Source: Candidatus Omnitrophota bacterium
Lineage (GTDB): Bacteria; Omnitrophota; Omnitrophia; Omnitrophales; JACROU01
Direction: 5' to 3'
DNA: 64,000 nucleotides
NCBI GenBank assembly: GCA_029261035.1
Contig: JAJDCD010000008.1
Coordinates: 34,313-98,312 of the forward strand
Shown here: positions 1 through 63,823 of the stretch, one piece after another
Layout of the letters: the number at the start of each line of letters is the position of its first letter
Numbering within the stretch: the first letter of the stretch is position 1
Made by a program: the position numbers and the translations under genes
The notes under the pieces: generated by a model
What the model was told of the DNA's origin: nothing
What the model saw: only the letters and a program-made list of their open reading frames with translations
Database searches by the model: none

Positions 1-252
1 CAGCATAAGCTTGCTTTGTTTCTGAAAAAACTTCAGCCTTATCACAAGTCATTTTGACATTTTTATATGTAATTACAACAGTTCCAGTAGCAATAATCTT
101 GCTTTTCTGACGATCATACTCTAACTGATCACCCGAAACCTCAATAGGGGCATCCGTTGGTACTTCTGCCATAACATCTGGGGGAAAACTACATAAACTA
201 ATTGTTAGCACTAACATCAGAAAAGCTTTAAAGAGCTTTCTTGTTAAACGCA
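1..252 (-). CDS. LPS-transport LptD/LptA-like protein, OstA N-terminal domain; 5' portion only, gene continues past window start
   Basis: Reverse translation from ATG at 250-252 gives MRLTRKLFKAFLMLVLTISLCSF...PIEVSGDQLEYDRQKSKIIATGTVVITYKNVKMTCDKAEV. This is a signal peptide plus the OstA_N pattern (PIxIxSDxxExDxxxxxxxxTGNVxxTxxxxxIxADKAxV) of LptA/LptD. The frame is open to position 1. Confidence 0.6.
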
Positions 253-369
253 TTTTAACCTCGTTGATCAAAACAACTTACAAGTTAAAAGAAATAAACC
301 ATACCTAAATCCCGCAGATTTTATCATAATTACCTACAGGAAACCAATTCAAATAAAATAATCGAAAAT

Positions 370-1029
370 TTACGATACAGAAAGGTTTGAGACCTTTTTC
401 CAATCACTTAAAAATTTGTCCAAACCACTTTGAGTCAGAGGATGCTTTACAAGGAGATCCAGCACTTTATAAGGTAAAGTAGCTACATGAGCCCCTATTT
501 TAGCTGCTTGAAGCACATGTATTGGATGTCGAATACTTGCCGCCAATATCTCTGTTGAAAAGCCGTAATTTTCATAAATAATCTTAATATCTTCGATCAG
601 ATCCATCCCATCAGCACCTATATCGTCTATACGTCCTATAAACGGACTAATATAGGAGGCGCCAGCTTTGGCTGCAAGTAACGCCTGATTAGCTGAAAAA
701 CACAAGGTAACATTTGTCTTAATTCCTTCTTCCGAAAAGATTTTAACTGCCTTAAGGCCTTCTTTAATTAAAGGAACTTTAACTACAATATTAGGAGCAA
801 TTTTAGAAAGGCTTCTACCCTCCTCAAGAATATCAGTCATTTCCGTTCCAACAACCTCTGCACTAACAGGGCCTTTTACTTCTTGGCAAATCTCTTTAAG
901 TAATCCTAAAAAATCGGTATTTCCTTCTTTTGAAACAAGAGAAGGATTCGTAGTGACCCCATCCAAAATACCCCAACTATTTGCATCTTTAATCTCATCA
1001 AGATTAGCAGTATCAATAAAAAATTTCAT
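370..1029 (-). CDS. tal: transaldolase / fructose-6-phosphate aldolase family (short TalC/Fsa type)
   Basis: 219 aa with [13 protein letters not shown]...GVTTNPSLV, the canonical short-transaldolase N-terminus and active-site region. Confidence 0.9.
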
Positions 1030-1123
1030 TCTCTCGGCTCCCTTTCATTAATTTATAAAAAAATAATTTACACCCCTCTAAAAACTTAAGATTTTACTCT
1101 TAAAACGCTAAAAAGGCCAATGA

Positions 1124-6085: not shown

Positions 6086-6248
6086 AAGTCCCTAAGTTAG
6101 TCAGAGCATTATATAAGCGTCCATAATTAAGTCAATTATTTTGAGGTGTAATAATTGATTTTATAGATTATAATTACTTACGGAAGCATATATCATGCCA
6201 ATTCAAAGGTGTAATTTAACATTTTTTTAGTAACTTTGCAGTAAAAAA

Positions 6249-15128: not shown

Positions 15129-15138
15129 ATCTTATATC

Positions 15139-34200: not shown

Positions 34201-37200
34201 ATAATTCTTTCTAAATTGCGAATAGAAAAACGGTATGATTGATCTGCATTAAAAGAGTCAAAGTACCCCTGCATACTCTTTTTATTCAACTCTATTTGAA
34301 ATTTCACAAACTCCCCTAATTGACGATATCGAATACCTTTTTTTGATAAATCATACTTTTTCATTAAAATTATGGTCATTTCTTCAACGCTCATGTCTCT
34401 AACGTGATGAATCTCAAAACGATTCATAAACGCTTCACTCATTCGATTTCGCCCCACATAATTAGACGGATTTCCACTCACAATAAGCTGAAACCCTTCA
34501 CCTGGATAAATCTTCTTACCTTGAAACTCCACATACCCTAATGTTAATAGCTGATAAAGCACTCCTATAGATTCTTCATTCGCTAAATTTACTTCATCTA
34601 ATAAAACAACATCTCCACGCTCGTACGCCTCCAAAAAAGCTCCTTTTTTAAAAATTAGCTCAATTCCAGTCAGCCCGTTAATAAGTAAAACAGAAAGGTC
34701 CAAAAGCTTTTTCTTAGCATTTAAATCAATTCCTCTAACCCCTGATCTCAGCAAATACTTTAAAATATACAACTCAATCAATTGCTCACTAGTGGTTTCT
34801 TTGGGTATCAAATCTCTTAAATGAAGCCTCATTTCATCTTCTGATATTTTAAGTTTTTTTAACGCCCTTTCTAAGCGGACATACTCTTTCTTCTCTAAGG
34901 CTTCCAGCAACACTTCCGTTGCTTTCCCTTCATCCATATCTATTTCTACAGGATGAAAACTACCGAACAAGTCATATTCATCCGTACGTCGGTTCATCTG
35001 AATTCTTGTCAGACGATTTCCTGACACATGAGCCACCAACTCAGCCATGGTCGATTTTCCACCAGCAGTTTCCCCCAACAACATGAGCGGATGATATTTT
35101 TTTCCATTAAATTTCGTTATAGTGACGCCGCTTCCGTGCTCCATCACATCCATTATTTGCGACATCAAAGCCTTACTTTCCTCTGTTAAAATAAATCCCC
35201 TTTCTTTTAAGACAACTTTTTCAAGACGGGCAACGACTTTGGAGCCACGAGAAACAACCCAAACATCACCTTCATCCTTCCATTCAAAAAAAGGAGAACC
35301 CAAATCTAAATCAGATGCAACATCCTTTTTAAAGACACTCCTATCGTCATCGTTGTTTAGCCTTAAATAATAGATTCTATTAACAGCATGTCTCAAGGCT
35401 TCGTCTTCAGAAACTCCATTTTGAATATCTCTAGAAATTACATCCACAATCCTGGAGACATCTCTTAAACTAGTAACATACCCTTCATTATTTTGAGTCC
35501 CTATCCTTCCTTCTTCCAAAGCTTTTTCAAATCCAGAGTAAATAGTGTAAATACGATTAACAATAGAGGAACTCACATTCGTTTGCCGATTGGAGAATTT
35601 TTTAAGAATAATATCTTGAACTTCTTTTTTAGATTTTTTATGAGAAACCCACACTTCATTAAATCGACTGCGAATAGCAGGCGACAAACCTACACGACCG
35701 CCACTAGCACTACTAATTCCCTGTTCCGGATTCATTGTTGCAAATAATCGGAAATTAGGATGTATCTTTACTTTTTCACCTGTCAAAGGATTTGTAAAAG
35801 TACCTTCATCAAAATATTCATTTAAAATTTCAATTAATCCAGACGTAGCCATATTCACTTCTTCAATAACAAAAATCGCACCCTCTTCCATTGCCTGAAT
35901 CAAAGCTCCAGGAACGTAATGCATTCTTTTAGTGTCTTCCTCCATTTCAAAGCCACCCACCAAACTTTCTAAATTAGCATTACCAAAAGAAATACTTCGG
36001 TACTTCCAACGCAAGCGGCGAGCCAAATCTCCAATCATTTCCGTCTTTCCACCTCCTGTTTGTCCCACGAGCATCACTGTAGACTTAGGGTCCATAAGTC
36101 CTTTAGCAATTGCATATTGAATTCGGTTCGTTTCTTTGCCTTCAGCAAGCTCTTCAATAATATCCGCCTCACTCGAGCCCTTTGGAAGATCATCATAAGA
36201 TCTTGTAGGAATAAATAGATCACCCATCCTTAACCCTTTGGGTGTATTTTCTTTCTGAGGAGATTCTGGCACTTCAAATTTAGGGAAATATTCTGCGGAA
36301 GTAAATAATACTTCAAGACGTTTAATATCTTCATCATCTCGACCTAAGATACTGCGGTAATTCATATAAGCTTCTCTTAGTAAAATCTGAGGCGAAGGAG
36401 GGGATGAATCGCTAGAAACCAATACCATCTGAGTATCTTTAACGATTTTCTTTATATTTCTTAATGTAAATTGATATGCTTTAGATGGATCCGAAGAATC
36501 CATATTAGAAAACTCCCCTTCCCGTATAGCTCTATTTACTTCCTTTTGAAATAAAGCTAAACGCTTAAAAGCACTTTCTAAACCCAAACTATATTGCTCC
36601 CATTCCCAGACGCTCGTGTTTTTAATTTCACTCGATATAATTTCCGTCATCTCTTCAGGTGTCATATTCGGAATATGATGAATTTCAAATCGGTTCATCA
36701 TAGCCTCTCCTAACTGATTTCTACCTGCATAGGTTGCTGGATTTGCAGTTGCAATAAATTTAAAACCCTTAGCCGGTCTGATTTTTTGAATTTTCTTAGT
36801 TTGCCTATCATAATACTCCACATAGCCCAAGGTTAATAATTGATACAAAACACCCAACACTTCAGGGCTAGCCAAATTGATCTCGTCTAAAACGACAACA
36901 TCTCCATTTTTGATAGACTTAAGCAAACGACCTTCTCTAAATTCAAGGTCTATATTCATAGACCCATTTTTTAAAATAAATGCGACATTCATAACCTTTC
37001 TTCTAGCAGCTTTTTTCTCTTGTGACTCTGTTCCAGATAAAGCATTTCCCAACCAACCTTTAAGCTCCTCCATCGTCTCCATATCAATTTCGTCTTTAGC
37101 CTGATACAAAGCTGTTTTAGATGAAGCTCTTCTAATTTGATCTACATCCATCTCCCCATGTTTCAATAGACTCATACTTTTTCTTAACTTCACCCAATCC

Positions 37201-40200
37201 TTGCGACTCATTGAGTTCATCAATATTCTATACGCTTCCTCAAAAGACAAGTCCACTTCTCTTGGCTCATAACTTCCAAAAAGATCCAATTCATCTATTC
37301 GCTCATTCATCTGAATTCGGGTATAACTCTGCCCCAAAAGATTGACAGCTGCATATTTCGCTAGAGAACTTTTACCTCCTGCAGTTTCTCCCATCAAAAG
37401 AGTTGGATTAAATTTATGAGCCTCAACGTCATTCGATGAAAGAGATAGTGTGGCTAAAAGACTCATTAAATTAGCTTTTGTTTGTGGACTTTCAACTAAT
37501 TGAGAATCTTTCACAATCACATTCAACCTTCTTTCAATCTCTTCCTCTGATAACGCAACATCGCTTTCTTCTATAATTTGTTGCCTCAAACTTTTGCTTA
37601 ATTGACTCAAATCAAATTGAGCAACTTTTACTCTTACTTTATTGTGAATTCCATAAACATTAAGAGCTCTATTCTCCCCACTCTCCACTACTTCATAATT
37701 CAACGAGTCTAAATTAACATTCTCTATACCTATGTTTGGGAATAAGGTTTCCAAGAGTTCTCCATCACTTTTTTCAAAAATACGGGACTGGTACACTCTT
37801 TTAATCGCTAAGGATAATGCCACATTCTCAGATTGGTTGAGCTCTTGAATCCCGTAGCTCATACCATAGATAATTCTTGTTAAATCTCTAATACTTGTAT
37901 AGTAAATATCAGATAAACGATTGCCGAAGAATCTTTTGTAATTTAAATAAAAATCAACAATACGTTCCACGGTTTTCTTTTCAATATTCTGAATCGCATT
38001 TTCACCCATGAGACCTTTTTGCTGAAACCTACCCTCAACAATTTCAATCAATTCTGAGCGAGTTTTTTCATGAGGAACCCAAACTTCTCTAAATCTATTT
38101 CTTAATGCCGGAGATAAGCTCACCCTTCCCGTATTCTCTCCAGAAACTCCTTCGATCGGATTCATTGTTGCCATCAACCTAAAATTATGATGGATATTAA
38201 CTCGCTCTCCTGTAAAAGGATTTGTAAAAGTCCCTTCATCAAAATACTCGTTTAAAATTTCTAATATGCCAGACTTAGCCATATTTAACTCTTCCAGAAC
38301 AAGTATATTCCCTTCTTCCATTGCTTGAATTAAGATCCCTGGACGATAAATAAATCGATGTTCCGCACGATCATATTCCATGGTTCCTATTAAGGTTTCT
38401 AAAGTAGCATCTCCCAAAGATACAGAGATATAATCCCAATTTAACTTATAAGCCAAATCGGCTATCATTTCACTTTTTCCACCTCCCGATTGCCCCACCA
38501 TTAAAACGGGCTCATTACGCCTAAGACCCTTTGCAATTTGGTACTGAATAGCCTTTGTAGATGACGTCTGGATCAAAGGTGGCACGACTCTTTCCGTTGG
38601 CTCTTCTGAATTAACCTGCGTAGAAATTCCTCCAATAACGAGTGATTCCGACTCTATATACTCGTAATCATCAAATTGAGTTAAGGAAGTCTCAATCATT
38701 TCATCAAAATCCTTAATCGTAAGGCCCAAATGAACCGAAAAAATAGTACGAATATTCTGAAAATCCGAATCTCCAGGAATTAGCCTCTGTCTTTTCCCTC
38801 CTTCAACTTCAGGATCTTCAATTTCTATTGTCTTACCCGAAAGATCTTCCATGCTATCTAAGTACCGTGGAGAACGAATTAAAATATTGGCATACTCACG
38901 ATAAGCAGCAGTAATCCATACCTGTTCATCAATGACAACTCCTTGCTCCTTTAGCTCTTTAACATCTTGATAAATTCTCAACAAATTTCTCATAGTAAAA
39001 ACATAATTAGCATCCCTACCCATCCTAGGAAAGGAACCACTTAGCAATTTGCTGTTAATTGTATTTTGTATAGCCGCTAAATATTTAATTAAATCTTGGT
39101 TGACTCCAAATTCTTCCTTTAAAACCTGGTCAGGATCTCTGCCAAGATAATCTCGACTCACTAAGCCTTTAATAATATTTGCCATCTCATAATCAGGTAT
39201 GGAGTCAATATTTAATATTTCAAAACGGTTCATAAATGCTTCACTCATTCTATTTCTACCTTCATAACTAGATGGGTTTGCTGTAGCCATAAGACGAGCT
39301 ATCTTACCAGCCTCACCTTCTATAACCTTTCCATTGTATTCAATATATCCTAAAGTTAACATTTGATACAAAACACCCAACATTTCTTCATTCGCCAAAT
39401 TAACTTCATCCAACAGAATCAAATCGCCCCTTCGATAAGCATCTAAAAATCTTCCTTCTTGATAAACAAGTCCTACTTCATTGTTTAATATATAAGCTAA
39501 TGATTTAATTTTTCTTATTTCATCCCAAGCTTTTGTTCCTTTTTTAATACTGTCTTCACCTTGTTTTAAGTAATGAGAGCTTTGTCCAGTATAAATTGAA
39601 AGTAATTTTTTTATTTTATTAACCACCCACTCATTTTGATCTTTTAAACTCAGAGTTGTGATTCGCTCTCTTTCTAAAGGACTGGATACAAACGCTTGAA
39701 TAAAATCACCTCTTTTGCCTATCTTCATTCGAACCAAAGCATCCTCTAATGCATTTAGGTTATTACTCTCTAAGGCTTCTCTAATTACTTTATCCGCATC
39801 CTGTAAAGAAATTTTTATTTCTCTAGGTTGAAACGAGCCAAACAAATCAAATTCATCCGTTCTCTGATTCACCTGAATTCGAGTAAAGCCCACATTTAAA
39901 ATATGAGAAACAATACTCGCCACGGTTGTCTTTCCCCCCGAAGTGACACCAAACTCCAAAACGGGATTAAACTTCTCATCTTCTCCACCGTCTAGACCTT
40001 GAAGAACATGGGCAATTTGTCTTTTTGTTGTTTCATTCAAAATCACTTGGGGAAAAGCCTCTGATATAGGAACGGATATCATTCCAGAGTAAAGTAAGCG
40101 CTTCTCTTTTGGGACAATTTCACGCACTTCAAAACGATACTGATCATTACCCTCATCATCTTGATCAACGATTCGCACTGTTTTTTGGTAGGGGCGCCTA

Positions 40201-43200
40201 CGTTCATATATTTTAATCCGTACTTCACCTTCAATGATTTCTTCTTCAAAATCATAGATAAAATCCAAAGGGTCGTCCTCCGTTATCAATCGATGCTTAA
40301 TCATCAAATTTCTCACCTTTTGCTTATCATCCAAATTTAAGCGATTATAATATCGACGTCGTACAGCAGCAGATACTGCTTCACTAATATTCCCATCATC
40401 TTTGTAATAACTTTGAACCATACTCATGGTTTTTTTCAAATCTCTAAGACTCACAAAGAGTGTTTCATTGTTCTCCAAACCTATATCACTTCTCTCTAAA
40501 GCTTTTTCATAATCCACATGAAAATTCACAATAGAAATAAAATAACGAAACGTATAAAGTAGATCTTTTAAATTCTTTATAGAATCCCCTACCATTCCTT
40601 TATAAAGATCCATCGCTTCTCTTAATAAAGCAGACGTTCCATCTTTTGCTGTTCTTGAAATTTGGGAAATGATTTGTAAAATCTCTGTTTCTTCAGCACT
40701 TCCTTCTTCAATTTTGAAAAAATTTCTAAGACCACTTAAAGGAAGTCGGACAAAGTCTTCGACACCCATATTGGCCAGAATTACACCTAAAGTTCTAAAG
40801 CGCTCAATATCATTATGCACCATCCCTTTATAATCTTTTAAAATACGCATGAGCATCGTCTTCAACTTAATATCACCTAGCTTCCCAAATGGCAAATCCA
40901 CTCCATACGTTGATTTTGATATATCAGCAATAGCAGTTAACAATTGAAAATCTGTAGCATCTGGAAACATTTTTGATTTTATATAACTTAAACTGTTTTC
41001 GTAACCCTCTGGCCCTCTATTCATTAACCAATCAAACTCTTCCTTAGATCCAAATAGATAGATATAAGTTAATACTTTAAACCCTTCCATCCCATGCTCG
41101 TCTAAAACTTTTCTGAATTTAGTTCTTAATTTTTCATCATTAGCCCCACTTTCCTCTTTACCAAACAAAAATAGAGATATGACTTTTTGAAGCTCATAAA
41201 ATACATGATACAATTCCTTCTGAGATGCTCCTGAAGAAGTTAGAATTGCCGCTTTGGTTACATCGCGTAAGGCTAAAATATCAGGTTGAGGCCCCCATTT
41301 AGCTTCTACATCATCCGCCCAACCTTTTAGCATGTTTGGTAGCGGCTGATTGACACTGGTACTTTCTAAGTAATCTAAAAGGTAAAATTTATCTTTAATA
41401 ACATAATTCACAAGCAACTCAACATAAGGCTTTTGATACAAAAGATCTAAGTCATGAACAATATGTTTTTCAACTCTACGCAGAGAGTCTAACTTTCCTA
41501 AAAACATTTGATTCTCTGTATTAGCTAATTTATTTATATGAACAATTTTACTTAATGCAAAATCAATAATTTTAGAATGATACTGACTCACGTACCCACT
41601 TTTTTCATACTCATCCATATAAGTTCGTCCTAATATCGTTTTTATTAGAGCTACCACAGCCTCTTCTTGAGAAGAAGACATCTCAGAAATCACTTCACCA
41701 CCTTGAAAAAGCTCTATTAATAGAAAAAGGTTATCCCCAGCACTAAGGATTAACTTAAAAAAATGATCTTCCTTAGAAAAAATAGACTCCTCTGCTTCTG
41801 CAGATTGATAAAAGAGAAGTGTTTTTGAGAAAATATCGGGAAATTCTGAGTGTTGTTTAGATAAAGATACAATAATGCTCAAGACTTCATCCTTTCGGCT
41901 AGCAGGTACCCTATCCTTCGTTATCTCATTCAGTAATAATAGAGCATCCACATTTTGAGCTAGAACCTCTCTCAATTCCCCATCCAAATCTTCCCAAGCA
42001 ATATAAAGTCGCCCGGCACTCGAAATCCCTAATTCATCATATTTTTCTTTAGCTCCTAAACTTTGAGCTTCAGCATCTGCAACTGAAGACAATGAGAGCC
42101 AATCATCTTCACTTCGGACAGAAACTGTAGCTACTTGATTCTCTACTTCTGAGACCCATATTTGAGAAAGTTGAAATAATTTTTCATTCACGCTCACTAA
42201 CCCTATCTTGTCAATTTCTTCCAAAACACCCAACACTTCCATTGATTTTTTACGTGCTAGGAAATAGGGGTAACGGCCACCCTCTTCTTCATCCGTCTCT
42301 ATAGATTTGATGTTTTCATTTGTTAACAAGAACAATCTTTCCAATCTAACCAAATTTATAGGCACTTTTGATTCTCTAGTCTCAATAACATATTTTTCAT
42401 ATGCTTGATACACACGTTCTAATAAATTCAACAATTCTTCTTGAGACACATTAAAATTAATCCCTCCAAGCAAATGAGAAAATAAGAATCTGAAGAACGA
42501 CCTATTTTGCTCTGATAATTTCAACATAACCTTAGGGTTATTCTCATTGAATCTCCTCTGTAAATTCAATAAATGATTCAAAACTACTTGAGAATCCCAC
42601 CCTATATCCATATTTTGATTTGCTAATTCTAGTAAAAATGATTGAGGAAGACTCAGGGGGTGAAACTCTTGATACACTTCCTTAATTTGTTCAGGAGTAT
42701 ATGTAATGGCCTTCAAACGACCTTGGGTGTAAAGTTCAAATAAATTCACCAAAAACTCTGATTTTAAACGTGAACCGAATATCAAAATAAGGAATTGGAT
42801 ATCCATATATCCATCCATTAAAGATTCATAATCACCAACACTTTCAATTTTTTCTAACAAATCCAAAACAAGAGGGCCGTTTTCTGCATAGTCATCACCA
42901 AGTAATTTTCGCAAGTCATCCCAAAAGGTATTTTCAACAACCTCATCCATATCAACAAAGTACTCTATCATTTTTTTAAAATCCAGAATTCCAGTTCCGA
43001 AGTTATTTATAAATACATCAAACACTTTCATTTCAAACAAAATATCGAATCGAGAATCCTCATCAACCAAACTTTCAAGTATGCGAACATCCTCTAAAAT
43101 CTTATAAAAATGCCGTATTACATCTGTGTTAATATTTTCCGACACTGGAATTTTTTTATTTCTGTTTAATTTAGATTTTAAAGATTTTATATATTTAAAA

Positions 43201-46200
43201 ATACCCGTTGCTCTTAGCAAAAGATCTCGCCAACGATCCAATTTTTCATCAGAACCCTTACCTGAAATATCATTACGCACTAAGATTTCTAATATCTCAA
43301 AAACAGAAGGCCCTTCCGAGGAAACGGTAGGCTCTAAAACCAATGCTTCCTCCAAAAAAACTAAGTCCTTATATTTATCACTAAACATATCCCAAGGCAT
43401 TCCAAGAGTTTCCTCTAGCCCTGACCTATCATAAGAATCATTCCCACCTAAACTTTTAGCTTCAATCAGAACAGGAGCCCGAGATAACCAATCTCCATCT
43501 TTAGCTTTTGGTTCTTCCTCAAGACTCTCTTTCTGCATGTTTAAATCATCTTCCCACTCTCTATCTAAATTCAGCAATAATTGATAAACATCATCAACAG
43601 GAATATGATCTAGCCGTTCCAGAACTTCGATCAACTCAGGCCCCTTTAAGGTATCAACAAAATAAGGGATTTCGGTAAGTTCCAATGTTGTTGTATTGAC
43701 ATAGCCCTTTTCCTCCATCATTCCTAGAAGCTTTGGATAAAACACATTCAAAAAAACAAGCGAGTCTATTTTTTTCAACAATTCCATAACGTTGTTAAGA
43801 CGATCTACAATAGAGGAGAGCTCAGCTTGATTCATATTAGGATCTAATCCTTCTATTAATTTTAAAATAATTCGACCATTCCCCGTACTCACCCCTACAT
43901 TTCTCAAAAAATGCAAAAGGTGCCCCTCCGTTAAAAAAGAAGGATTTACTCTCCCTTCAATAACCGAATCCAAAAATCCAATAATTAAACTATGATCATC
44001 TTCAGTCAATGCTATTTCAATATCAAAAATTTGTTCTAAATATCTATCAACACCACTAATAACTCCTTTCTCTTTCAAGAGGAGTAATCGAAATAAAATT
44101 TTATTAGCTAAAAATATATGAGGACCATACAACTGATTAAATCGAATAAAGTCTTCTTTTGAATACTCCGATCGATCAATTTGATTGTTCTTAAGGAGCT
44201 CCCCCAACTCTCTGAGTGCCTTAAAAACAGATATTTGTATGTGCTTTTTTCCTAACGGGGTCTGTTTTTCTAACATGTTTTTGATTAAAGGAAAGTCTAG
44301 AACAAATGGATCAATTAATTCTTTTTCCACCAAATTCAATAAAAGATCTATTTCTTTTGTAACTAAATACACCCCCCCTGGTTCCATTTTTTGAAGGAGA
44401 TAAACAAAAAGGCTAAGATTAAAATATCTTTCTCCATCAACCTTTTTTAATTTCTGCAGCAATAGAGTGAAACGCTCTAAAAACTCATCTTCGTGCCCCT
44501 CATAAAGCTGCCTTCCGATAAGCCTTCCTATTAAAATTAAATCATCTTTTAGTTTCATGAATTCAGCCCCAGATCTTTCTTGCCCCTCTTCATCAAGAAG
44601 ACCTAAAACTGCATCTAAAAACATGCTGTACTCTTCTCCAAATACAAAAGAAAAGAAATAACGAAATTCTGCCGGCAAATCTTCCCATTCCCAACCCAGA
44701 CTCTCTTTCAATGAAGAATTATCATAAATTTCTCTCCCCCCTAAACTTTTAGCTGAAATTAAAGCTTTTCCTCTCTCTAACCATTCCCCTTCTTCACTAA
44801 TTTCTTCACTTCTCCCTCCTGCCCCTTTCTGAATTTCAACGCGCCATACTTTACGTAGGTTTTCTATTTTTTCTATAGCAGCATCCTCTCCCACTTCACT
44901 TGCAGATTCTAATATTTCTAAAACCGTTTCTATATGATAGTTATTTAAATAATAACTTTGTAACTCTTTATCCTCTACAAGAAAGCCTTCCATGTATTCA
45001 AATAACAAGCTGTAGTAAAATTCATCATCCAAAACACGCTCAATCCGCATCAACAACTCTTCAACTTCATTTCCATCCATAGTTGGAGAAATTCCCGAAA
45101 TCAATAATAGCCCCAACTTTCCATTTCCACTCATAACTCCCAAATCTTTGTACAACTCAACAATTCTCCAATTATGAATTAAATAAGTATGAGAGACTCC
45201 GTCCAAGACTCTTTTCAACAGATTTGCTAAATCAAGATAACTCCCACCATTTAGAGCCGAAAGGTTCGGTGGGAAAAACTGTTTAGCAGCATCTTTATAG
45301 CTCTTAACTTTTTCTTGAAACTGCAATTGAATTAAATGAACTATAATTTTAAAAAAGTTTTGGGCTCTCATGTTGCTTTGAGACAGTAAAGCAACCAAAT
45401 ACTCATCCTTTAAAACCCGTCGCACCTCTTCATTTTCCTTTGCCATCACACCCAAAATCTCCAGAGAATCAAAGCCTATATCTTCATTTTCATCCCTTTC
45501 ATTAACAATCAAAGCTTTGATTAGTTCAGGGTTCAATACGGATGCATCTAGTTTGCCATTACGCACATCCAGAATAAGTCGATTAATACGAGATAAACTT
45601 ACGTACGTATTAGTTTCACTCATCATAAAGAAAAAGAAATCAGAATTAAATTTTTGAGCAATGTTCTCATCTTTTAAGGAGTCTAATAAGGTTAAAGTTT
45701 CTGAAATCACCTCAGCAATGTGATTATGCCTAGACATCCCATTCTTGAAGCCAAGATCATTTAAAATGATAATATCTTTCCATTTCATTAATTCTTTTTT
45801 ATATCCCTCTACTGAGGATTCACCAACAAAATTAATTACCGCATCAAACAACCTTAACATTGAACTTTGAATCACCCGAACACTAAAACCATATTGCATT
45901 TCCTCATCGAGATCTTCCCACTTTAACCCCGTTCTCTCTTCAATCCCTGAAGCTTCAAAAAACTCTTTAGCTTCTACAAGACCTAAGCTTTTAGCTGTTG
46001 CATTAGTATTCACTTCAATTTTTTCGAGTTCCCCCTTCATCTTTACGACATCTGGCCAATGAACAATCTCTCTCACCATCCCATTCATCTCAGCAGGAGA
46101 GATCGTTCCCTGTGAAGCCATTCTACGAATCAACGATAATCCCCATTCAACAAGAGCTGCTTTCCCCTGCACACCATCCAAAAACCGAGCTTCAGCTTCA

Positions 46201-47642
46201 GCTCTTAAATTAGCAATAGACAAGACAGATGCTTCTTTTAAGGTCGCCTGGATTGCCAAATAATTGTCCATTCTTTTTTTGTAAGAAACGCTTTTGTTTT
46301 GGAATTCAAAACTAGGCTTAACAACCTGAATACCCCATCCTCTTTCTTCAAACTCTTCCTTGAGGCGGCTCGTATGAAAACCTCCCATATGAATCACCAT
46401 TCTACGATTCCCACCTTTAACTTCTTGATTTATCTTCTTCATAAAGCCCGATTCCCTTTGAATTGCTAATTCATAGTATTCCTCTATAGGTTGAGGTAGT
46501 TTTAAACCCAACACTTGAATCAACTCCCATTCTTTTCGAATTAGTTTTAGATCAAAAGCTTTTGTTTTTAGCTCCATTTCTTTTGATTTTAAAAACAATG
46601 CTTTTTGGGCTTCTGTAATCAATAAATTATTCTTTATTTCATCTACATATTTTTTTAAATCATAGAGTATTTGAATGGATAGGGCTGGAGGAGACGTTTT
46701 TAAATCCTTTTCTTCTTTCATCAATCTATTGGGTCCGAGAATCATCTTCATACTATGAAGGTACTCTCTTGGGCTAATCAAAGAGCTCATCCATTGTTGT
46801 TGAGTCGATCCCCACTGTTTAGAAACTTCTTTAGATAAACGCTCATTCTTGATTCTTTTCTCAACCAAAGGGATTTGCTTTTCTACATAAGGCTCCATTT
46901 CCCTTTGATAGGTTTCCCAATCCCACAACAACCTTAACTCTCCAGAAGCTTCCACTTCCTGAAACTTCTTTATGTATGTTAGCCAAACATCAATAACACC
47001 ACTTTTTTGATACATTCTTTCCTTTTCTTCCAATTCCAAAACCTCTTCGGGATAAATTTCCAACTTCTTTTGATTTAACTCTTCTAATTCTTGGGCTAAC
47101 ACCATTCGAGCATCCTTCAATAGAACACTGTTCTGTACGTCAAAATAGGCTTTAACGTTCTTTTGATATAAAGATTCTTGATCCAATCCTTTAAATTGAG
47201 TTATAAGCTCTCTATTCAACGCTGCAACCTCAGCGCCGTTCAAACGGCCTTCTTCTAATTCTTGAAGTAAATACGCTTGCTTTTCTAATCTATTCGGGTA
47301 ACTCTCAATTAATACACTCTCTAAAGGATGAGAAGCCCCTTCGATGAGAAATGCATGATAATCATATTGTTTTTCTAGTTGATTAAAGAGAGAAAGTATA
47401 GACTTCTGAGCCGCTATGTATCCATGAGCGTCTTCAACAATAACAACATCTACCTCAGAGCCTTTATGATAAAAACTTACTTCACCCTGATCTAACTGTA
47501 ATTGTTTGTAATTTAGTGTTGGTTTTGAAGGTGAAAAAAAAGAAGGATTAGCGAAACCCTCAGGTAGTAGCGTCCCCTGAGAGCAGAGAAAGAAAAATAA
47601 AACAAAAGTTGAAATGAGCCTATTTGTTTTTTTCATAATCAT
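28239..47642 (-). CDS. giant (6467 aa) midasin-like protein: signal peptide, about 2450-aa helical N-region, six MoxR/midasin-type AAA+ (AAA_5) modules, acidic linker, HExxH motif, GQ/GE low-complexity tract, VWA/MIDAS domain, about 620-aa C-terminal region
   Basis: One uninterrupted ORF of 19,404 nt. Six Walker-A sites lie at nt ~39945 (GVTSGGKTT), ~38490 (GQSGGGKSE), ~37375 (GETAGGKSS), ~36060 (GQTGGGKTE), ~35070 (GETAGGKST) and ~33030 (GHSGGGKTE). Odd modules carry TRIQMNxRTDExDLFGS, cf. MoxR RIQFTPDLLPSD and midasin RINNHEHTDLQEYIGSY. Acidic stretch EQEDVVLLEEPSDPKSPEQRSELEPQ...ENADELEDLPDD. HEAMH at 32053-32067. GKGGQGQGQGQGQGQGEGEGE at ~31350-31400. MIDAS motif LLIDQSGSMSG at ~30707-30745. 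Confidence 0.85.
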   Translation of the reverse strand: MIMKKTNRLISTFVLFFFLCSQGTLLPEGFANPSFFSPSKPTLNYKQLQLDQGEVSFYHKGSEVDVVIVEDAHGYIAAQKSILSLFNQLEKQYDYHAFLIEGASHPLESVLIESYPNRLEKQAYLLQELEEGRLNGAEVAALNRELITQFKGLDQESLYQKNVKAYFDVQNSVLLKDARMVLAQELEELNQKKLEIYPEEVLELEEKERMYQKSGVIDVWLTYIKKFQEVEASGELRLLWDWETYQREMEPYVEKQIPLVEKRIKNERLSKEVSKQWGSTQQQWMSSLISPREYLHSMKMILGPNRLMKEEKDLKTSPPALSIQILYDLKKYVDEIKNNLLITEAQKALFLKSKEMELKTKAFDLKLIRKEWELIQVLGLKLPQPIEEYYELAIQRESGFMKKINQEVKGGNRRMVIHMGGFHTSRLKEEFEERGWGIQVVKPSFEFQNKSVSYKKRMDNYLAIQATLKEASVLSIANLRAEAEARFLDGVQGKAALVEWGLSLIRRMASQGTISPAEMNGMVREIVHWPDVVKMKGELEKIEVNTNATAKSLGLVEAKEFFEASGIEERTGLKWEDLDEEMQYGFSVRVIQSSMLRLFDAVINFVGESSVEGYKKELMKWKDIIILNDLGFKNGMSRHNHIAEVISETLTLLDSLKDENIAQKFNSDFFFFMMSETNTYVSLSRINRLILDVRNGKLDASVLNPELIKALIVNERDENEDIGFDSLEILGVMAKENEEVRRVLKDEYLVALLSQSNMRAQNFFKIIVHLIQLQFQEKVKSYKDAAKQFFPPNLSALNGGSYLDLANLLKRVLDGVSHTYLIHNWRIVELYKDLGVMSGNGKLGLLLISGISPTMDGNEVEELLMRIERVLDDEFYYSLLFEYMEGFLVEDKELQSYYLNNYHIETVLEILESASEVGEDAAIEKIENLRKVWRVEIQKGAGGRSEEISEEGEWLERGKALISAKSLGGREIYDNSSLKESLGWEWEDLPAEFRYFFSFVFGEEYSMFLDAVLGLLDEEGQERSGAEFMKLKDDLILIGRLIGRQLYEGHEDEFLERFTLLLQKLKKVDGERYFNLSLFVYLLQKMEPGGVYLVTKEIDLLLNLVEKELIDPFVLDFPLIKNMLEKQTPLGKKHIQISVFKALRELGELLKNNQIDRSEYSKEDFIRFNQLYGPHIFLANKILFRLLLLKEKGVISGVDRYLEQIFDIEIALTEDDHSLIIGFLDSVIEGRVNPSFLTEGHLLHFLRNVGVSTGNGRIILKLIEGLDPNMNQAELSSIVDRLNNVMELLKKIDSLVFLNVFYPKLLGMMEEKGYVNTTTLELTEIPYFVDTLKGPELIEVLERLDHIPVDDVYQLLLNLDREWEDDLNMQKESLEEEPKAKDGDWLSRAPVLIEAKSLGGNDSYDRSGLEETLGMPWDMFSDKYKDLVFLEEALVLEPTVSSEGPSVFEILEILVRNDISGKGSDEKLDRWRDLLLRATGIFKYIKSLKSKLNRNKKIPVSENINTDVIRHFYKILEDVRILESLVDEDSRFDILFEMKVFDVFINNFGTGILDFKKMIEYFVDMDEVVENTFWDDLRKLLGDDYAENGPLVLDLLEKIESVGDYESLMDGYMDIQFLILIFGSRLKSEFLVNLFELYTQGRLKAITYTPEQIKEVYQEFHPLSLPQSFLLELANQNMDIGWDSQVVLNHLLNLQRRFNENNPKVMLKLSEQNRSFFRFLFSHLLGGINFNVSQEELLNLLERVYQAYEKYVIETRESKVPINLVRLERLFLLTNENIKSIETDEEEGGRYPYFLARKKSMEVLGVLEEIDKIGLVSVNEKLFQLSQIWVSEVENQVATVSVRSEDDWLSLSSVADAEAQSLGAKEKYDELGISSAGRLYIAWEDLDGELREVLAQNVDALLLLNEITKDRVPASRKDEVLSIIVSLSKQHSEFPDIFSKTLLFYQSAEAEESIFSKEDHFFKLILSAGDNLFLLIELFQGGEVISEMSSSQEEAVVALIKTILGRTYMDEYEKSGYVSQYHSKIIDFALSKIVHINKLANTENQMFLGKLDSLRRVEKHIVHDLDLLYQKPYVELLVNYVIKDKFYLLDYLESTSVNQPLPNMLKGWADDVEAKWGPQPDILALRDVTKAAILTSSGASQKELYHVFYELQKVISLFLFGKEESGANDEKLRTKFRKVLDEHGMEGFKVLTYIYLFGSKEEFDWLMNRGPEGYENSLSYIKSKMFPDATDFQLLTAIADISKSTYGVDLPFGKLGDIKLKTMLMRILKDYKGMVHNDIERFRTLGVILANMGVEDFVRLPLSGLRNFFKIEEGSAEETEILQIISQISRTAKDGTSALLREAMDLYKGMVGDSIKNLKDLLYTFRYFISIVNFHVDYEKALERSDIGLENNETLFVSLRDLKKTMSMVQSYYKDDGNISEAVSAAVRRRYYNRLNLDDKQKVRNLMIKHRLITEDDPLDFIYDFEEEIIEGEVRIKIYERRRPYQKTVRIVDQDDEGNDQYRFEVREIVPKEKRLLYSGMISVPISEAFPQVILNETTKRQIAHVLQGLDGGEDEKFNPVLEFGVTSGGKTTVASIVSHILNVGFTRIQVNQRTDEFDLFGSFQPREIKISLQDADKVIREALESNNLNALEDALVRMKIGKRGDFIQAFVSSPLERERITTLSLKDQNEWVVNKIKKLLSIYTGQSSHYLKQGEDSIKKGTKAWDEIRKIKSLAYILNNEVGLVYQEGRFLDAYRRGDLILLDEVNLANEEMLGVLYQMLTLGYIEYNGKVIEGEAGKIARLMATANPSSYEGRNRMSEAFMNRFEILNIDSIPDYEMANIIKGLVSRDYLGRDPDQVLKEEFGVNQDLIKYLAAIQNTINSKLLSGSFPRMGRDANYVFTMRNLLRIYQDVKELKEQGVVIDEQVWITAAYREYANILIRSPRYLDSMEDLSGKTIEIEDPEVEGGKRQRLIPGDSDFQNIRTIFSVHLGLTIKDFDEMIETSLTQFDDYEYIESESLVIGGISTQVNSEEPTERVVPPLIQTSSTKAIQYQIAKGLRRNEPVLMVGQSGGGKSEMIADLAYKLNWDYISVSLGDATLETLIGTMEYDRAEHRFIYRPGILIQAMEEGNILVLEELNMAKSGILEILNEYFDEGTFTNPFTGERVNIHHNFRLMATMNPIEGVSGENTGRVSLSPALRNRFREVWVPHEKTRSELIEIVEGRFQQKGLMGENAIQNIEKKTVERIVDFYLNYKRFFGNRLSDIYYTSIRDLTRIIYGMSYGIQELNQSENVALSLAIKRVYQSRIFEKSDGELLETLFPNIGIENVNLDSLNYEVVESGENRALNVYGIHNKVRVKVAQFDLSQLSKSLRQQIIEESDVALSEEEIERRLNVIVKDSQLVESPQTKANLMSLLATLSLSSNDVEAHKFNPTLLMGETAGGKSSLAKYAAVNLLGQSYTRIQMNERIDELDLFGSYEPREVDLSFEEAYRILMNSMSRKDWVKLRKSMSLLKHGEMDVDQIRRASSKTALYQAKDEIDMETMEELKGWLGNALSGTESQEKKAARRKVMNVAFILKNGSMNIDLEFREGRLLKSIKNGDVVVLDEINLASPEVLGVLYQLLTLGYVEYYDRQTKKIQKIRPAKGFKFIATANPATYAGRNQLGEAMMNRFEIHHIPNMTPEEMTEIISSEIKNTSVWEWEQYSLGLESAFKRLALFQKEVNRAIREGEFSNMDSSDPSKAYQFTLRNIKKIVKDTQMVLVSSDSSPPSPQILLREAYMNYRSILGRDDEDIKRLEVLFTSAEYFPKFEVPESPQKENTPKGLRMGDLFIPTRSYDDLPKGSSEADIIEELAEGKETNRIQYAIAKGLMDPKSTVMLVGQTGGGKTEMIGDLARRLRWKYRSISFGNANLESLVGGFEMEEDTKRMHYVPGALIQAMEEGAIFVIEEVNMATSGLIEILNEYFDEGTFTNPLTGEKVKIHPNFRLFATMNPEQGISSASGGRVGLSPAIRSRFNEVWVSHKKSKKEVQDIILKKFSNRQTNVSSSIVNRIYTIYSGFEKALEEGRIGTQNNEGYVTSLRDVSRIVDVISRDIQNGVSEDEALRHAVNRIYYLRLNNDDDRSVFKKDVASDLDLGSPFFEWKDEGDVWVVSRGSKVVARLEKVVLKERGFILTEESKALMSQIMDVMEHGSGVTITKFNGKKYHPLMLLGETAGGKSTMAELVAHVSGNRLTRIQMNRRTDEYDLFGSFHPVEIDMDEGKATEVLLEALEKKEYVRLERALKKLKISEDEMRLHLRDLIPKETTSEQLIELYILKYLLRSGVRGIDLNAKKKLLDLSVLLINGLTGIELIFKKGAFLEAYERGDVVLLDEVNLANEESIGVLYQLLTLGYVEFQGKKIYPGEGFQLIVSGNPSNYVGRNRMSEAFMNRFEIHHVRDMSVEEMTIILMKKYDLSKKGIRYRQLGEFVKFQIELNKKSMQGYFDSFNADQSYRFSIRNLERIIHDALQYSKEGSEEESLFDLILKTGYQEYYGLLSQTNSDDPFRNNNINKLNALFERFLIQSFDESLENNNAFQEVMKSDDGRAEVSIEEIIEKQAANFALEVEGALNLLRSIEWDDSKSDVDPDLKFRYLESQEEKLRAVNPDFFLSTNQAFGLMFRKESSGDGDEKTFLERFQTFSLELIEGNRLFFERGSKTLEMSDFRRASKAVTSNLKPVVAFEDIYIDGYKIRQTQNDLGEWIELNGVKVKKLDLNDMLNSFHIEVNALIQEGVFVSNEGGRLNPIDDSSMTRVMDEAVRDRDSDLPLKERYKKIISEFYGGMLQNLPENKLILESVIDKYFRSQAERIDKLVEIKSMGNVRSQILKGFRDGGTVKVRDSEGSTVEIHKSKPVLLTGHSGGGKTEMIGDIARELYWPYMSVSLGAATIESLIGSFVLDESTGTMEFKKGVLIQAMERGYALVLEEINMADAGVIEVLNEYFDRGTMSILEKGGVYVNIHPNFRLFGTMNPAEGRTGMNAGRVGLSPALRSRFREVWVRSQRRRDEMYQIMLGGIQSLVGRVLKLVQSKEINLDEQEDVVLLEEPSDPKSPEQRSELEPQMIQPSMTSLDSESSSLKDPEEVLMASMDVLSDRPFQELENADELEDLPDDSRWKLMGAEQRAEIFVQAFETVSKGTVNVEVRTGKDANWAFNRGKNMVIVPASALMEESLESVLGTAIHEAMHRYATWYSSLFYEFLKDTSLGATVFNIIEDGRIENWAKLRFKGAARFLKRMNDEAVFRTEDVEQLFKTDHSYSSILSNLMLWLAKRGDFDDSKDKFPRILEIIGEKDADLRKDVEKLLATGVFGTWDKDRYHYKGGDRDEILGKYQRAQMRSVFAKIPVTFDDVGLPRFQSELREGDVKIIELAREQGEMIKDIVMPVVYKWAVRDAQENQKKDKGKGGQGQGQGQGQGQGQGEGEGESGDGDLIIEGDVHIGPGAPPGGKPSKGKITIKGDLIIEGDMPEQPSTGDSSGEGATVEGKIKDKRKKKISDKDWKKIWEALGEKDKSKIVDEIKKGAAGNAKDRTKEDSTDYQDAMKDASINEPRSLRDNLMGWLGGTIMTLTGYLRDLIQNSLRPKEVTGMKKGRIDIRRLMNSMARGFVDMRFYKQKVLPQKKDIKFTLLIDQSGSMSGTPADSEANKPTHAGMAGYNALKGAVVFMETLQNLGIDFAVRGFGSSTHLHKRFKGQKTEPEDLREGADAVPQSYGTRREKEYLIEDLYRSIGAHGGTDDFSAILKSMEDIQKVGGERHYVFVITDGMGTRDQVMAFLEELRKKNGRVGGSVVDYVGIGLGTGTEDVIEVYGSQFSFSLKDNELSKLPETMKKVLSNIIQGVYSPGARGGSSSLSGSGREIVDATSLGGVIGVSAELTKNNLETIQGQSLGFEEDYEASILPERLGLSFEEFELKYPVVTQAVYKDVFFSFLEANPNMDEKFIERWIMIYLEMIRKMPRSTPVHFEALEFKKIITEAISNPEKNLFADIDLIELFVGLNEENWMYALNQFYLLSDSELNNYFFKKEWALLFLPGNYLNILNSLSSGISKGRLNGNIIRMDLLNLFTTAKEWLFLAYFFLYQIPLEFNENQIKNIETQIKEVLTIIFSRNDISEEAKRKMMLVLGKIGMNKDFRKIEEVLEVFERHGADDWEVLFQQLNKLFFAVSQSSETLVVPEDESPWLDREVLARSLGETLSLDVVLTHLLQEDFSSEVLLAEYLETALGVQLSKEYKRSFWQLYQSTREMPEVLTRAMEIATLMWSVDRRDLDQIKVNYSDIFIGDQVVDVILDLSSFEGLMKSFPEWIQQMKERDQLYILYNPRDHDERIKASEWMRKGSVLHGKTNIRFVKKQARRQTFSDRSDSLKIGIMTEGVWGEMESKIPEEYMTASYSKADGEIREGLAAFVFKLVLARAKVASDGVVIHPEWFEDTLGVKGIRLEGSHLVFDLLENLRLSIEAERLVAQAA
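30100..30780 (-). other. von Willebrand factor A (VWA) domain with intact MIDAS DxSxS motif
   Basis: KDIKFTLLIDQSGSMSG (nt 30707-30745), then downstream T and D positions (ITDGMG) consistent with a complete MIDAS. Confidence 0.7.
31348..31402 (-). repeat. in-frame hexanucleotide SSR (CCYTGM)n encoding (GQ)6(GE)3 low-complexity linker
   Basis: + strand ccctgcccttgcccttgaccttgaccttgaccctgcccttgacc; protein GKGGQGQGQGQGQGQGEGEGESGDGD, flanked by the duplicated motif GDLIIEGD. Confidence 0.8.
32053..32067 (-). other. HExxH zincin-like motif (AIHEAMHRY) between acidic linker and VWA domain
   Basis: The reverse complement of ATGCATTGCTTCATG encodes H-E-A-M-H. A possible third ligand Glu lies about 30 aa downstream (NIIEDGRIEN). 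Its position N-terminal to the VWA mirrors the putative-metallopeptidase+VWA partners of MoxR ATPases. Confidence 0.4.
32300..40150 (-). other. array of six tandem AAA+ modules (ABABAB) inside the giant ORF
   Basis: Walker-A positions listed under the giant CDS. Modules alternate between a GxT(S/A)GGK(T/S) class followed by RIQMNxRTDExDLFGS and a GQ(S/T)GGGK(S/T)E class followed by xGxAxLExLIG and NILVLEExNMAxxGxxExLNEYFDxGTF. Confidence 0.75.
47544..47642 (-). other. predicted Sec signal peptide of the giant protein (MIMKKTNRLISTFVLFFFLCSQGTLLPEGFA|NP)
   Basis: Lys-rich n-region, a 13-residue hydrophobic core and a small-residue c-region ending GFA. By eye only. Confidence 0.5.
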
Positions 47643-47691
47643 CAGTTTAATTCAGTGTATGTTATTGATAAACTTCAAGTTACCTACATTA

Positions 47692-47720
47692 AATATACCT
47701 GGAATACACACCCTTTACAA
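47692..47720 (-). promoter_or_regulatory. candidate sigma-70-type promoter for the giant gene (-35 TTGTAA, 17-nt spacer, -10 TATATT), with adjacent palindrome CTGTTA-tt-TAACAG / AAAACAGCG upstream
   Basis: Minus-strand reading: AACAGCGTTGTAAAGGGTGTGTATTCCAGGTATATTTAATG, about 45 nt upstream of the ATG at 47642. Hexamers were matched by eye only. Confidence 0.25.
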
Positions 47721-63427: not shown

Positions 63428-63823
63428 TTAAAGACCTTTTAATTCTGGTATCTCTTCAGGGTCTGCAAAATCATTGATTTTATCTTCAAGCCAATTATTA
63501 TAAGCAAAGTCTAGAGCTCGAAACTTATCTACCGGATCGATACTTATAAAACGCAAACCATATTCATTGCCAGCATTTTTCTCTTTAAGTTTTTTAGCCC
63601 ATACAACTTCAACGCTTACTTCTATTGGTCTGGGATCATCAGGGATACGAACTTCAATATCCATATTCGAATTTACTTTTAAAGCTTCATTTGTTGAGAT
63701 TTTAATACCATCACGTGAAACGTCATGAGTCAGACATGTGACTTTCTTATCTGATTTAGAAGATAAAAATTTAACTGTCATATAAGCATCAAATCTTTTA
63801 AATCTTCTTTTTTCTTTATTCAT
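63428..63823 (-). CDS. PilZ-domain c-di-GMP-binding protein
   Basis: RRFKRFDAYMTVKF (RxxxR) and THDVSRDGIKI (DxSxxG) at PilZ spacing, 131 aa. Confidence 0.7.
   Translation of the reverse strand: MNKEKRRFKRFDAYMTVKFLSSKSDKKVTCLTHDVSRDGIKISTNEALKVNSNMDIEVRIPDDPRPIEVSVEVVWAKKLKEKNAGNEYGLRFISIDPVDKFRALDFAYNNWLEDKINDFADPEEIPELKGL

Follow-up and report, generated by a model that had tools for sequence, protein, structure and literature searches.

A giant multi-AAA+ ATPase of an Omnitrophota bacterium carries a Sec-type leader and is a candidate for export

Background

Very long open reading frames (ORFs) have been described in the Omnitrophota. Their products bear N-terminal signal peptides or transmembrane helices together with cytoplasm-type domains such as methyltransferase and HATPase_c, with AAA_5 among the top domains; self-cleavage is suspected, and PilZ genes adjoin (bioRxiv 10.1101/2023.11.21.568195; bioRxiv 10.64898/2026.06.07.730766; PMC10066038). 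According to DeepTMHMM their metabolic domains lie on the periplasmic or extracellular face (bioRxiv 10.64898/2026.06.07.730766). The two preprints describe N-terminal C39 or S8 peptidases, and West-Roberts et al. report N-terminal regions generally without identifiable domains, with cleavage points not known. The general phenomenon, giants with leaders and cytoplasm-type domains, is already known, in preprints. We analyzed one such gene in a 64,000-nucleotide stretch of a Candidatus Omnitrophota bacterium (contig JAJDCD010000008.1, positions 34,313 to 98,312, hereafter the window). Its product of 6,467 amino acids (aa), called the giant below, joins a Sec-type leader to six AAA_5 ATPase modules, and the question is on which side of the membrane these modules work. 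The giant differs from the described proteins in its length, 6.5 thousand residues being below the thresholds of 10 to 20 thousand, and in having no internal transmembrane helices. The adjoining PilZ genes are echoed at one orthologous locus (L009), the PilZ gene of the window lying about 16 kb off. In a term search of the two preprints, cysteine, midasin, dynein, MoxR and VWA did not turn up, and no use of RSELR/RSEVR as a junction motif was found in the literature searched. The TIKI-type N-terminal domain with its catalytic set, the junction motif, the [AS]A end, the cysteine exclusion and the six-AAA plus VWA cargo, all described below, appear to be unreported.

Two other groups of giant proteins invite comparison. 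MARTX are giant secreted toxins which deliver enzyme domains, including the TIKI-family endopeptidase RRSP, into the host cytoplasm (PMC6254334). They share with the giant the modular secreted-type chain, the enzyme domains and a TIKI-superfamily domain, putative in the giant, with a set of two His, two Glu and an Arg, and they are processed into modules. MARTX nevertheless use type I secretion via a C-terminal signal, autoprocessing by a cysteine protease and glycine-rich repeats, whereas the giant has an N-terminal Sec leader, its TIKI-like domain is N-terminal in every family member, and its processing is hypothesised. CdiA and FHA have a Sec leader and a conserved N-terminal domain, reach several thousand residues and are cysteine-poor; the C-terminal cargo of CdiA acts in the cytoplasm of the target cell. 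These proteins are beta-helical filaments with a two-partner secretion (TPS) domain and an adjacent Omp85-type TpsB gene, in contrast to the giant, which is all-alpha plus enzymes and has an Omp85-family gene about 12 kb off.

AAA+ rings are textbook cytoplasmic machines. The ATPase part of the giant resembles eukaryotic midasin/Rea1 in having six AAA_5 modules in one chain, a low-complexity charged stretch, a putative VWA/MIDAS-like domain and a match to the Midasin AAA lid, a likeness which concerns architecture only. MoxR ATPases usually function together with a VWA protein (PMC13036017; PMC9976466). The giant has the plan of such pairs (RavA-ViaA, NorQ-NorD, CbbQ-CbbO) fused in one chain. 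Midasin and the MoxR-VWA pairs lack a signal peptide and act in the nucleus or cytoplasm, whereas the giant combines a secreted-type chassis, absence of cysteine and alternating DE/EE Walker B motifs with a VWA match that stays below the Pfam cut-off.

Leader of the giant

The giant is encoded on the minus strand of the window (35.5% G+C). Translation of 47544..47642 gives MIMKKTNRLISTFVLFFFLCSQGTLLPEGFANP, residues 1-33, identical to the N-terminus quoted in an earlier reading made from the sequence only. The first 23 to 31 residues appear to form a genuine Sec-type signal peptide, in the style recognized by type I signal peptidase, from which cleavage would follow. The anatomy is tripartite (Table 1). 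In both candidate cleavage sites positions -1 and -3 are small and uncharged, and +1 is not Pro. The cut after A31 placed by the sequence-only reading is kept as a candidate, with a rival after G23 that is equally conserved.

The 5' end of the ORF is bounded by an in-frame stop (codons ...CAC TGA ATT AAA CTG ATG), and in the first 120 codons ATG, GTG or TTG is found at codons 1 and 3 only. A true start lying downstream of the leader was one way in which the earlier reading could have been wrong; with the upstream TGA and no later start in 120 codons, this is not the case. The Sec-type leader proposed there is borne out by its tripartite anatomy, by the fixed start and by the conserved leaders of orthologues described below.

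The Kyte-Doolittle mean over 19 residues reaches 1.73 at residues 9-27, and the uncharged stretch is 19 aa long. These are features of a signal anchor, yet the core has 12 aa only and is followed by two good candidate cleavage sites. By the positive-inside rule, the positive charge on the N-terminal side argues for an N-in/C-out orientation, with the bulk of the protein outside, cleaved or not. A single other 19-residue window exceeds 1.6 in the giant, inside AAA module 5, so that nothing topologically separates the leader from the ATPases; the leader is the sole convincing hydrophobic stretch outside the folded ATPase core. Hydropathy detected no transmembrane segment between leader and ATPases in the giant or in the orthologues L005 and L007. 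An AlphaFold2 (AF2) model has a helix at residues 2-21. The linker that follows is found at the same position across the family alignment A1, where it is variable and rich in A, P, S and T.

The style of the leader is that of plainly exported proteins of the window. The glucoamylase/CBM9 protein begins with MNYISKRILLSFFFLLFSFNILLPCAYA, followed by QE, and the Omp85-family protein with MTNYLQKWTKLFCILFISIFLPSVSVFA, followed by QD.

Conservation of the leader in the family

Relatives were collected by an exhaustive HMMER search with residues 1-1200 against 1.84 billion representatives. This yielded a family of 2,278 proteins (clusters at 50% identity) at E <= 1e-3, 428 of them at E <= 1e-10. 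Most of them are giants, the longest of 7,754 aa, and it is always their N-terminus that matches. Residues 1-586 and the family profile A1 had returned nothing useful in a word-indexed search, despite relatives at 38% identity over 570 residues; a "no homologues" result from such a search should not be trusted for low-complexity, helix-rich giants. The family statistics below were drawn from the 150 best of the 2,278 representatives, and those on leaders from 126 with a complete N-terminus.

The two closest relatives, the contig-truncated orthologues P0001 (MRLFSRFKKGLSTGLLFFFIASQGVFLPDGFALP) and P0002 (MLKKPVAYITIITFLFSQGTVLPYGFAQP), have a leader like that of the giant, in which both candidate cleavage sites are kept. 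A metagenome scan with AAA modules 1-2 gave six further loci at 40-48% identity. The leader and the same N-terminal domain were present in 3/3 independent six-AAA lineages whose N-terminus was in the fetched DNA: L006 (MVKKGVFHREDCLRKVIAFLTVLFFLTTDLFGPKAYA, followed by LS), L007 (MSILKPLYPYRFSTRFIALMLVLCFLSSNLQA, followed by QV; identical in L008) and L009 (MQLMNQSKVIAGVLLLLFPITNLGLAG...). Orthologues without the hydrophobic N-terminus would have counted against the sequence-only reading; P0001, P0002, L006, L007/L008 and L009 all have it.

The pattern extends to the whole family. A hydrophobic core was detected in 120 of the 126 complete N-termini, with a median length of 13 aa (10th-90th percentile 11-18) within an uncharged stretch of median 23.5. 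The n-region has a mean net charge of +3.05 (at least +1 in 97%), and the 20 residues after the core contain 0.94 K+R where 2.62 would be expected. Behind the core, AxA is present in 54% of cases, compared to 14% of background windows and 37% of composition-matched shuffled windows; for [AGS]x[AGS] the figures are 97.5% and 55% of background windows. Such properties are those expected of cleavable Sec signals, not of membrane anchors.

Two loci require a comment on their reading frames. A scan of a genome collection for relatives gave a single distant one, L002, in a metagenome-assembled genome labelled Elusimicrobia. Its leader is absent from the in-frame translation (2824 onward), and a family-type leader, RPAKFLLIGFFTILWGLG, lies just upstream in another frame (2645..2935). 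The frame break is probably an assembly indel, and L002 probably not a leaderless orthologue. About three transmembrane helices and a region read as PP2C-phosphatase-like come after the TIKI-like domain of this protein. The L009 ORF (2345..10786, 2,813 aa) stops inside the first AAA module, with similarity to the giant running past the stop; the gene may be truly split, or the stop may come from a frameshift or a sequencing error.

Cysteine exclusion

The only Cys of the giant, C20, is located inside the leader, and the mature part contains none in 6,436 residues. From the 0.96% Cys of the other 39 ORFs of the window, 61.5 would be expected (log10 P = -26.8). TGT/TGC occurs once in frame, compared to counts of 141 and 293 in the two remaining frames, a contrast which argues for selection and not for base composition. 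Leader-bearing proteins of the window have 3 Cys in 1,867 mature residues (0.16%; five proteins, a small sample), against 112 in 9,825 (1.14%) for leaderless ones. In the family Cys amounts to 0.09% pooled, an approximately ten-fold depletion, and Cys is entirely lacking in 46 of 150 members, one of them 7,754 aa long; AAA-bearing orthologues have 0.04-0.29%. The cysteine signal is independent evidence from that of the leader, and it extends over the entire chain with its ATPase ring. Low cysteine is also typical of passengers kept unfolded for a second translocation, as in autotransporters and two-partner secretion. Exclusion of cysteine from exported proteins is a documented adaptation to the oxidising extracytoplasmic space (PMC2823432).

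ATPase unit

The multi-AAA+ nature of the giant, already proposed in the sequence-only reading, was confirmed by Pfam: AAA_5 matches seven stretches with E = 2.1e-90 and the sixth module with 6.1e-19, giving six modules, and the Midasin AAA lid matches at 1.1e-06. Walker A motifs (GGK[ST]) are found at residues 2569, 3054, 3422, 3864, 4194 and 4876. Walker B reads hhhhDE in the odd-numbered modules (1, 3, 5) and hhhhEE in the even-numbered ones (2, 4, 6). Every module has a conserved Asn in an NP motif, presumably sensor-1, and an Arg in NRF/SRF, presumably the arginine finger. Odd modules share ...VLYQLLTLGY and even modules ...ILNEYFDEGTFTNP. This alternation, kept in the metagenomic orthologues, suggests a triplicated two-AAA unit.

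Downstream of the ring, the HExxH motif keeps its position in orthologues without matching a Pfam family. The VWA-like domain matches VWA_CoxE at E = 0.0029 and 0.00038, neither of which reaches the Pfam cut-off; its DxSGS and the Asp of [IL]TD[GA] are kept in L004-L007, and its MIDAS-like Thr is not. The six Walker A, the alternating DE/EE Walker B, HExxH and DxSGS are common to the metagenomic orthologues L004-L008 at 40-48% identity. Conservation of the ATPase motifs at this distance argues for selection on ATP turnover.

N-terminal hydrolase domain and family plan

The domain that follows the leader and linker, about 450 residues long in the family, appears to be a divergent TIKI-type hydrolase, with a putative catalytic set. 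In an alignment of 25 members H73, E101-G102, R396 and G420-G421-F422-H423 are invariant and D71 nearly so. The spacing in the giant is D71-x-H73, E101 (+28 from H73), R396 and H423 (+27 from R396). In RRSP it is E3900-x-H3902, E3930 (+28), R4001 and H4030 (+29), and in Bcr135 H85 and E113 (+28) (PMC6254334). The set of two His, two Glu and a basic residue is thus present in the giant in the canonical TIKI order and spacing, [D/E]-x-H, E 28 residues later, R, and G-x-x-H about 27-29 after R, with Asp replacing the first Glu. The AF2 model computed on the same alignment (predicted local distance difference test score, pLDDT, 81.9; predicted template modelling score, pTM, 0.72) predicts a parallel beta-sheet core. 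Its best PDB match is Bcr135 (2rad/3b55), a TIKI protein of the erythromycin-esterase family, and this match is weak (E = 0.058), probably because of a long helical insertion of about 250 residues (~156-409) in the domain of the giant. This insertion and the Asp set the giant apart from the superfamily, and no Pfam or NCBIfam model matches its domain; other family members give sub-threshold Pfam matches (Cofac_haem_bdg 0.0077, Erythro_esteras 0.0009, TraB_PrgY_gumN 0.058). Several members of the TIKI superfamily, such as Tiki, ChaN and PrgY, are extracytoplasmic.

The helical modules of the giant are punctuated by a short motif, [AG][KQRT]S[LM]G, with 7 copies at module boundaries against 0.1 expected. 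At residues 550, 964, 1395 and 1859 it is preceded by D/E-W-L and followed by ...Y-D/E...L-G-x-x-W-E-D-L. In most family members the junction motif has another form, R[SA]E[VILM]R, with 464 copies in 150 proteins against 6.6 expected (~70-fold), a median spacing of 395 aa and surroundings rich in A, S, P and E. The first form is used by the giant, P0001, P0044 and P0110. The two forms are mutually exclusive between subfamilies, the giant having zero RSExR, and they occupy one position: ENDLWLKGGGRSEVRAK in L009 corresponds to EGEWLERGKALISAKSLGG in the giant. The motif may be a processing or docking site. An AF2 model of one helical module with both junctions (pLDDT 48) is of low confidence and uninformative on motif disorder.

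The extreme C-terminus is also constrained. Among the 150 representatives 64% end in [AS]A, where 1.4% would be expected, and a junction motif frequently comes immediately before this end (e.g. ...ARAEVRKAA); such tails are found in P0004, P0005 and P0007 among others, and the giant ends in ...IEAERLVAQAA. The family shares one plan: leader, linker, TIKI-type domain, helical modules of about 400 aa with the junction motif, variable cargo dependent on nucleotides or S-adenosylmethionine (SAM), and the [AS]A end. In 12 other full-length members the cargo consists mainly of SAM methyltransferases, ABC1 kinases, adenylate kinase, HATPase_c, NUDIX and a pyridoxal phosphate enzyme, with WD40 and HEAT repeats. 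The conflict between a signal peptide and cofactor-dependent enzymes is the rule of a family of more than 2,000 clusters and not a quirk of one gene.

In a bolder scheme the family would consist of Sec-exported, self-processing polyproteins, the TIKI-type domain cutting at the junction motifs, which recur about every 400 residues and have an echo at the extreme C-terminus. The cuts would free cysteine-free, nucleotide-dependent enzymes for delivery into another cell and action there; in the giant this would be a whole midasin-like ring of six AAA modules with the VWA-like domain. We regard the scheme as a whole as speculative and rather improbable. If it were true, it would define a new class of chassis for effector delivery in bacteria, and the giant would be the first known case of a secreted AAA+ remodelling machine of the ring type.

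Destination of the giant

The sequence-only reading had presented the leader of this ATPase as a topology paradox, with two ways out: an uncleaved membrane anchor, or export to a compartment that holds ATP. These are the right alternatives, and the paradox is real and family-wide. It is not evenly balanced, since the charge distribution, the short core, the cleavage sites and the absence of cysteine favour export. The account we prefer, with a confidence that is only a little above even, is that the giant is exported whole and that its ATPase unit acts outside the cytoplasm of the producer, where ATP exists, most plausibly in another cell. No ATP supply is known in the periplasm. With a core so hydrophobic and rich in Phe, and a protein so large, targeting is probably co-translational, of the signal recognition particle type. 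The leader would then feed the whole 6,467-aa chain through the cytoplasmic membrane and be cleaved. The Omp85-family gene of the window implies an outer membrane, so that Sec export alone would reach the periplasm; a further secretion step would be needed to pass the outer membrane. The midasin-like unit formed by the six AAA modules, HExxH and the VWA-like domain would finally work in or on another cell as an effector-like cargo. Taken together, the intact and conserved ATPase motifs and the cysteine-purged chain suggest a protein adapted to an extracytoplasmic route and still built for the use of ATP.

The best surviving alternative, which we nonetheless think unlikely, is that the N-terminus stays uncleaved and anchors a machine of the cytoplasm on the inner side of the membrane, near ATP, SAM and other cofactors. 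All the family cargo needs cytoplasmic cofactors, and a transmembrane-only class of Omnitrophota long proteins has been read in this way (bioRxiv 10.64898/2026.06.07.730766). The arrangement of charges, positive before the core and depleted after it, gives an N-in/C-out orientation, which is the wrong way for a cytoplasmic body. Moreover, a core of 12-13 aa is below the length of a membrane span, small-residue sites follow it far above chance, and cysteine exclusion has no obvious cytoplasmic reason, the leaderless neighbours being at 1.14% Cys.

Several observations nevertheless weigh against export, the first three of them in favour of such a tether. The 19-aa uncharged stretch of the giant, like the longer one typical of the family, could span a membrane, and its hydropathy is high. 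In 15 transmembrane hairpins of the family K+R is scarce in the loops (0.06) and at background level in the flanks (0.12-0.14), a weak hint of a cytoplasmic bulk that is too small to decide. The leader seems better conserved than the domain that follows: giant and P0001 are identical at 15 of 25 leader positions (60%), compared to 42% over the whole N-terminal region, which is unusual for a discarded peptide. If the cut falls after G23 this would be partly explained, as LPxGFAxP would then belong to the mature protein. No secretion system or dedicated partner was found adjoining the giant in the window or in the orthologous loci L006, L007 and L009. In its repertoire the family cargo recalls regulatory or housekeeping enzymes more than classic toxins, and the genes of the window suggest metabolic self-sufficiency.

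An exported giant might also stay in the periplasm or on the surface as a coat, its AAA modules being nucleotide-independent scaffolds or fed by nucleotides of lysed or attached prey. Leader and cysteine exclusion are compatible with this, and roles in surface coats and prey degradation have been proposed for Omnitrophota giants (PMC10066038; bioRxiv 10.1101/2023.11.21.568195; 10.64898/2026.06.07.730766). Scaffolds would not be expected to keep Walker A and B, the NP Asn and the NRF/SRF Arg at 40-48% identity, and Pfam scans found no adhesin, carbohydrate-binding or lytic domain in the giant. With these points in mind, and with no ATP supply known in the periplasm, we consider a coat distinctly unlikely.

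Finally, it is highly improbable that the leader results from a wrong start or belongs to the lipoprotein or Tat (twin-arginine translocation) class: the ATG is not preceded by a Shine-Dalgarno-like sequence (nor are several other genes of the window), a Cys ends the hydrophobic core and RR precedes the core in about 11% of family leaders (N-termini read by eye), against which stand the upstream stop, the lack of an alternative start and the conservation of the leader as protein. Examined class by class, the F-F-L-C20 of the giant misfits the lipobox [LVI][ASTVI][GAS]C, since -1 is Leu and -2 is Phe, and neither P0001 nor P0002 has the Cys. A Tat signal, with S/T-R-R-x-F-L-K before a weakly hydrophobic core, does not agree with a single Arg (NRL) before a strongly hydrophobic core, and most family leaders have a single R or K. 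A prepilin-type signal was rejected as well, the hydrophobic stretch coming before the G/F site and not after it.

Either bacteria export AAA+ machines for work in another cell, as in the account we prefer, or every topology predictor mis-localises more than 2,000 giant proteins. Both answers bear on the debated role of giant proteins in bacteria that are ultra-small and perhaps live as predators or parasites. Concrete experimental handles on the question are offered by the leader, by the TIKI-like domain with its full catalytic set, by the junction motif and the [AS]A end, and by the cysteine exclusion.

Genomic context

Table 1. Position of the features of the giant and of other genes of the window.
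Feature	Residues	Window position	Strand	Basis or remark
ORF of the giant	1-6467	28239..47642	-	stop codon 28239..28241
Sec-type leader	1-31	47550..47642	-	sequence anatomy and conservation in relatives
n-region MIMKKTNR		47619..47642	-	net +3 (K4, K5, R8); zero acidic residues
Hydrophobic core LISTFVLFFFLC		47583..47618	-	12 aa, Phe-rich; includes C20 (codon 47583..47585)
c-region SQGTLLPEGFA		47550..47582	-	candidate type I signal-peptidase sites after S21-Q22-G23 (before T24) and after G29-F30-A31 (before N32)
Mature part		28242..47549	-	Cys-free
Pro/Ser-rich linker	32-52	47487..47549	-	predicted disordered; pLDDT <50 at residues 28-42
N-terminal hydrolase domain, TIKI/TraB/ChaN/erythromycin-esterase type (putative)	53-545	46008..47486	-	conserved residues and AF2 model
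Four all-helical modules	546-2450	40293..46007	-	no Pfam match
Junction motif copies [AG][KQRT]S[LM]G	550, 964, 1395, 1859	45981..45995, 44739..44753, 43446..43460, 42054..42068	-	
Six tandem AAA_5 modules (MoxR/dynein/midasin-type)	~2451-5060	32463..40292	-	Pfam and motifs
HEAMH (HExxH, zinc-peptidase-like)	5193-5197	32052..32066	-	position kept in orthologues
Low-complexity charged region	5401-5600	30843..31442	-	includes (GQ)7 run at 5415-5428
VWA-like domain	~5628-5830	30153..30761	-	DQSGS 5638, GGTD 5740, ITDG 5768
C-terminal helical modules	5861-6467	28242..30062	-	junction motifs at 5868, 5891, 6191
Junction motif copies	5868, 5891, 6191	30027..30041, 29958..29972, 29058..29072	-	
C-terminal tail		28242..28283	-	[AS]A end
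In-frame TGA stop		47652..47654	-	four codons 5' of ATG 47640..47642; bounds the ORF 5' end
Promoter-like hexamers TTGTAA-17 nt-TATATT		47692..47720	-	~50 nt 5' of ATG, in a 227-bp intergenic gap; consensus match alone
Two GGDEF proteins		1124..3966		adjacent, membrane-bound; one with GAF
Glucoamylase/CBM9 protein		7730..9646		leader-bearing
TLC-like ORF, 911 aa		10566..13301		Pfam TLC partial, E = 1.1e-19, residues 102-424 only
Omp85-family gene and adjoining 560-aa protein		13446..16470		
Omp85-family gene, 443 aa		15139..16470		leader-bearing; ~12 kb from the stop codon of the giant
PilZ protein		63428..63823		~16 kb upstream of the giant

The sequence-only reading had taken a TLC/NTT-like transporter in the window as a hint of association with a host. 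This does not hold well: the ORF scores 60.3 bits against TIGR00769, the family of nucleoside tri- and diphosphate exchangers, where the cut-off is 387.2, its C-terminal half of about 480 aa is unannotated, and it should not be named ATP/ADP translocase. The evidence is weak, in a window that is otherwise ordinary, biosynthetic and catabolic. It also codes for DAHP synthase, NAD synthase, an alanine-dehydrogenase/PNT-family protein, sigma-54, AccD-like and FabI-like enzymes and an AMP-binding enzyme of the acyl-CoA-synthetase type, besides the two GGDEF proteins and the PilZ protein. Reading of the translations adds likely electron transfer flavoprotein (ETF) subunits, beta-oxidation-type enzymes and glycerol kinase. 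Such a gene set is not the picture of a reduced obligate parasite, which makes the argument from lifestyle weak. The GGDEF and PilZ genes show that cyclic di-GMP signalling is well represented in the window.

The Omp85-family gene adjoins a gene for a leader-bearing, cysteine-free protein without family match, and the two could form a transporter-substrate pair. In the DNA upstream of the giant, the search for promoter-like sites gave 4 sites against 2.4 expected, a weak excess, and a hairpin located between the gene for DAHP synthase and that of the giant falls short of significance (z = -1.77).

The upstream neighbours of orthologues differ from locus to locus. They are enolase and an unannotated 145-aa ORF in L006. 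In L007, by reading of translations, they are a 910-aa protein like UvrD/AddA-type helicase-nucleases and, directly upstream, a 248-aa TatC-like protein (2727..3473). In L009 the upstream region (34..1460) contains the C-terminus of another family member, with RSEVR and a ...TAESA end, and a PilZ-like ORF, which indicates that giants of this family can lie in tandem.

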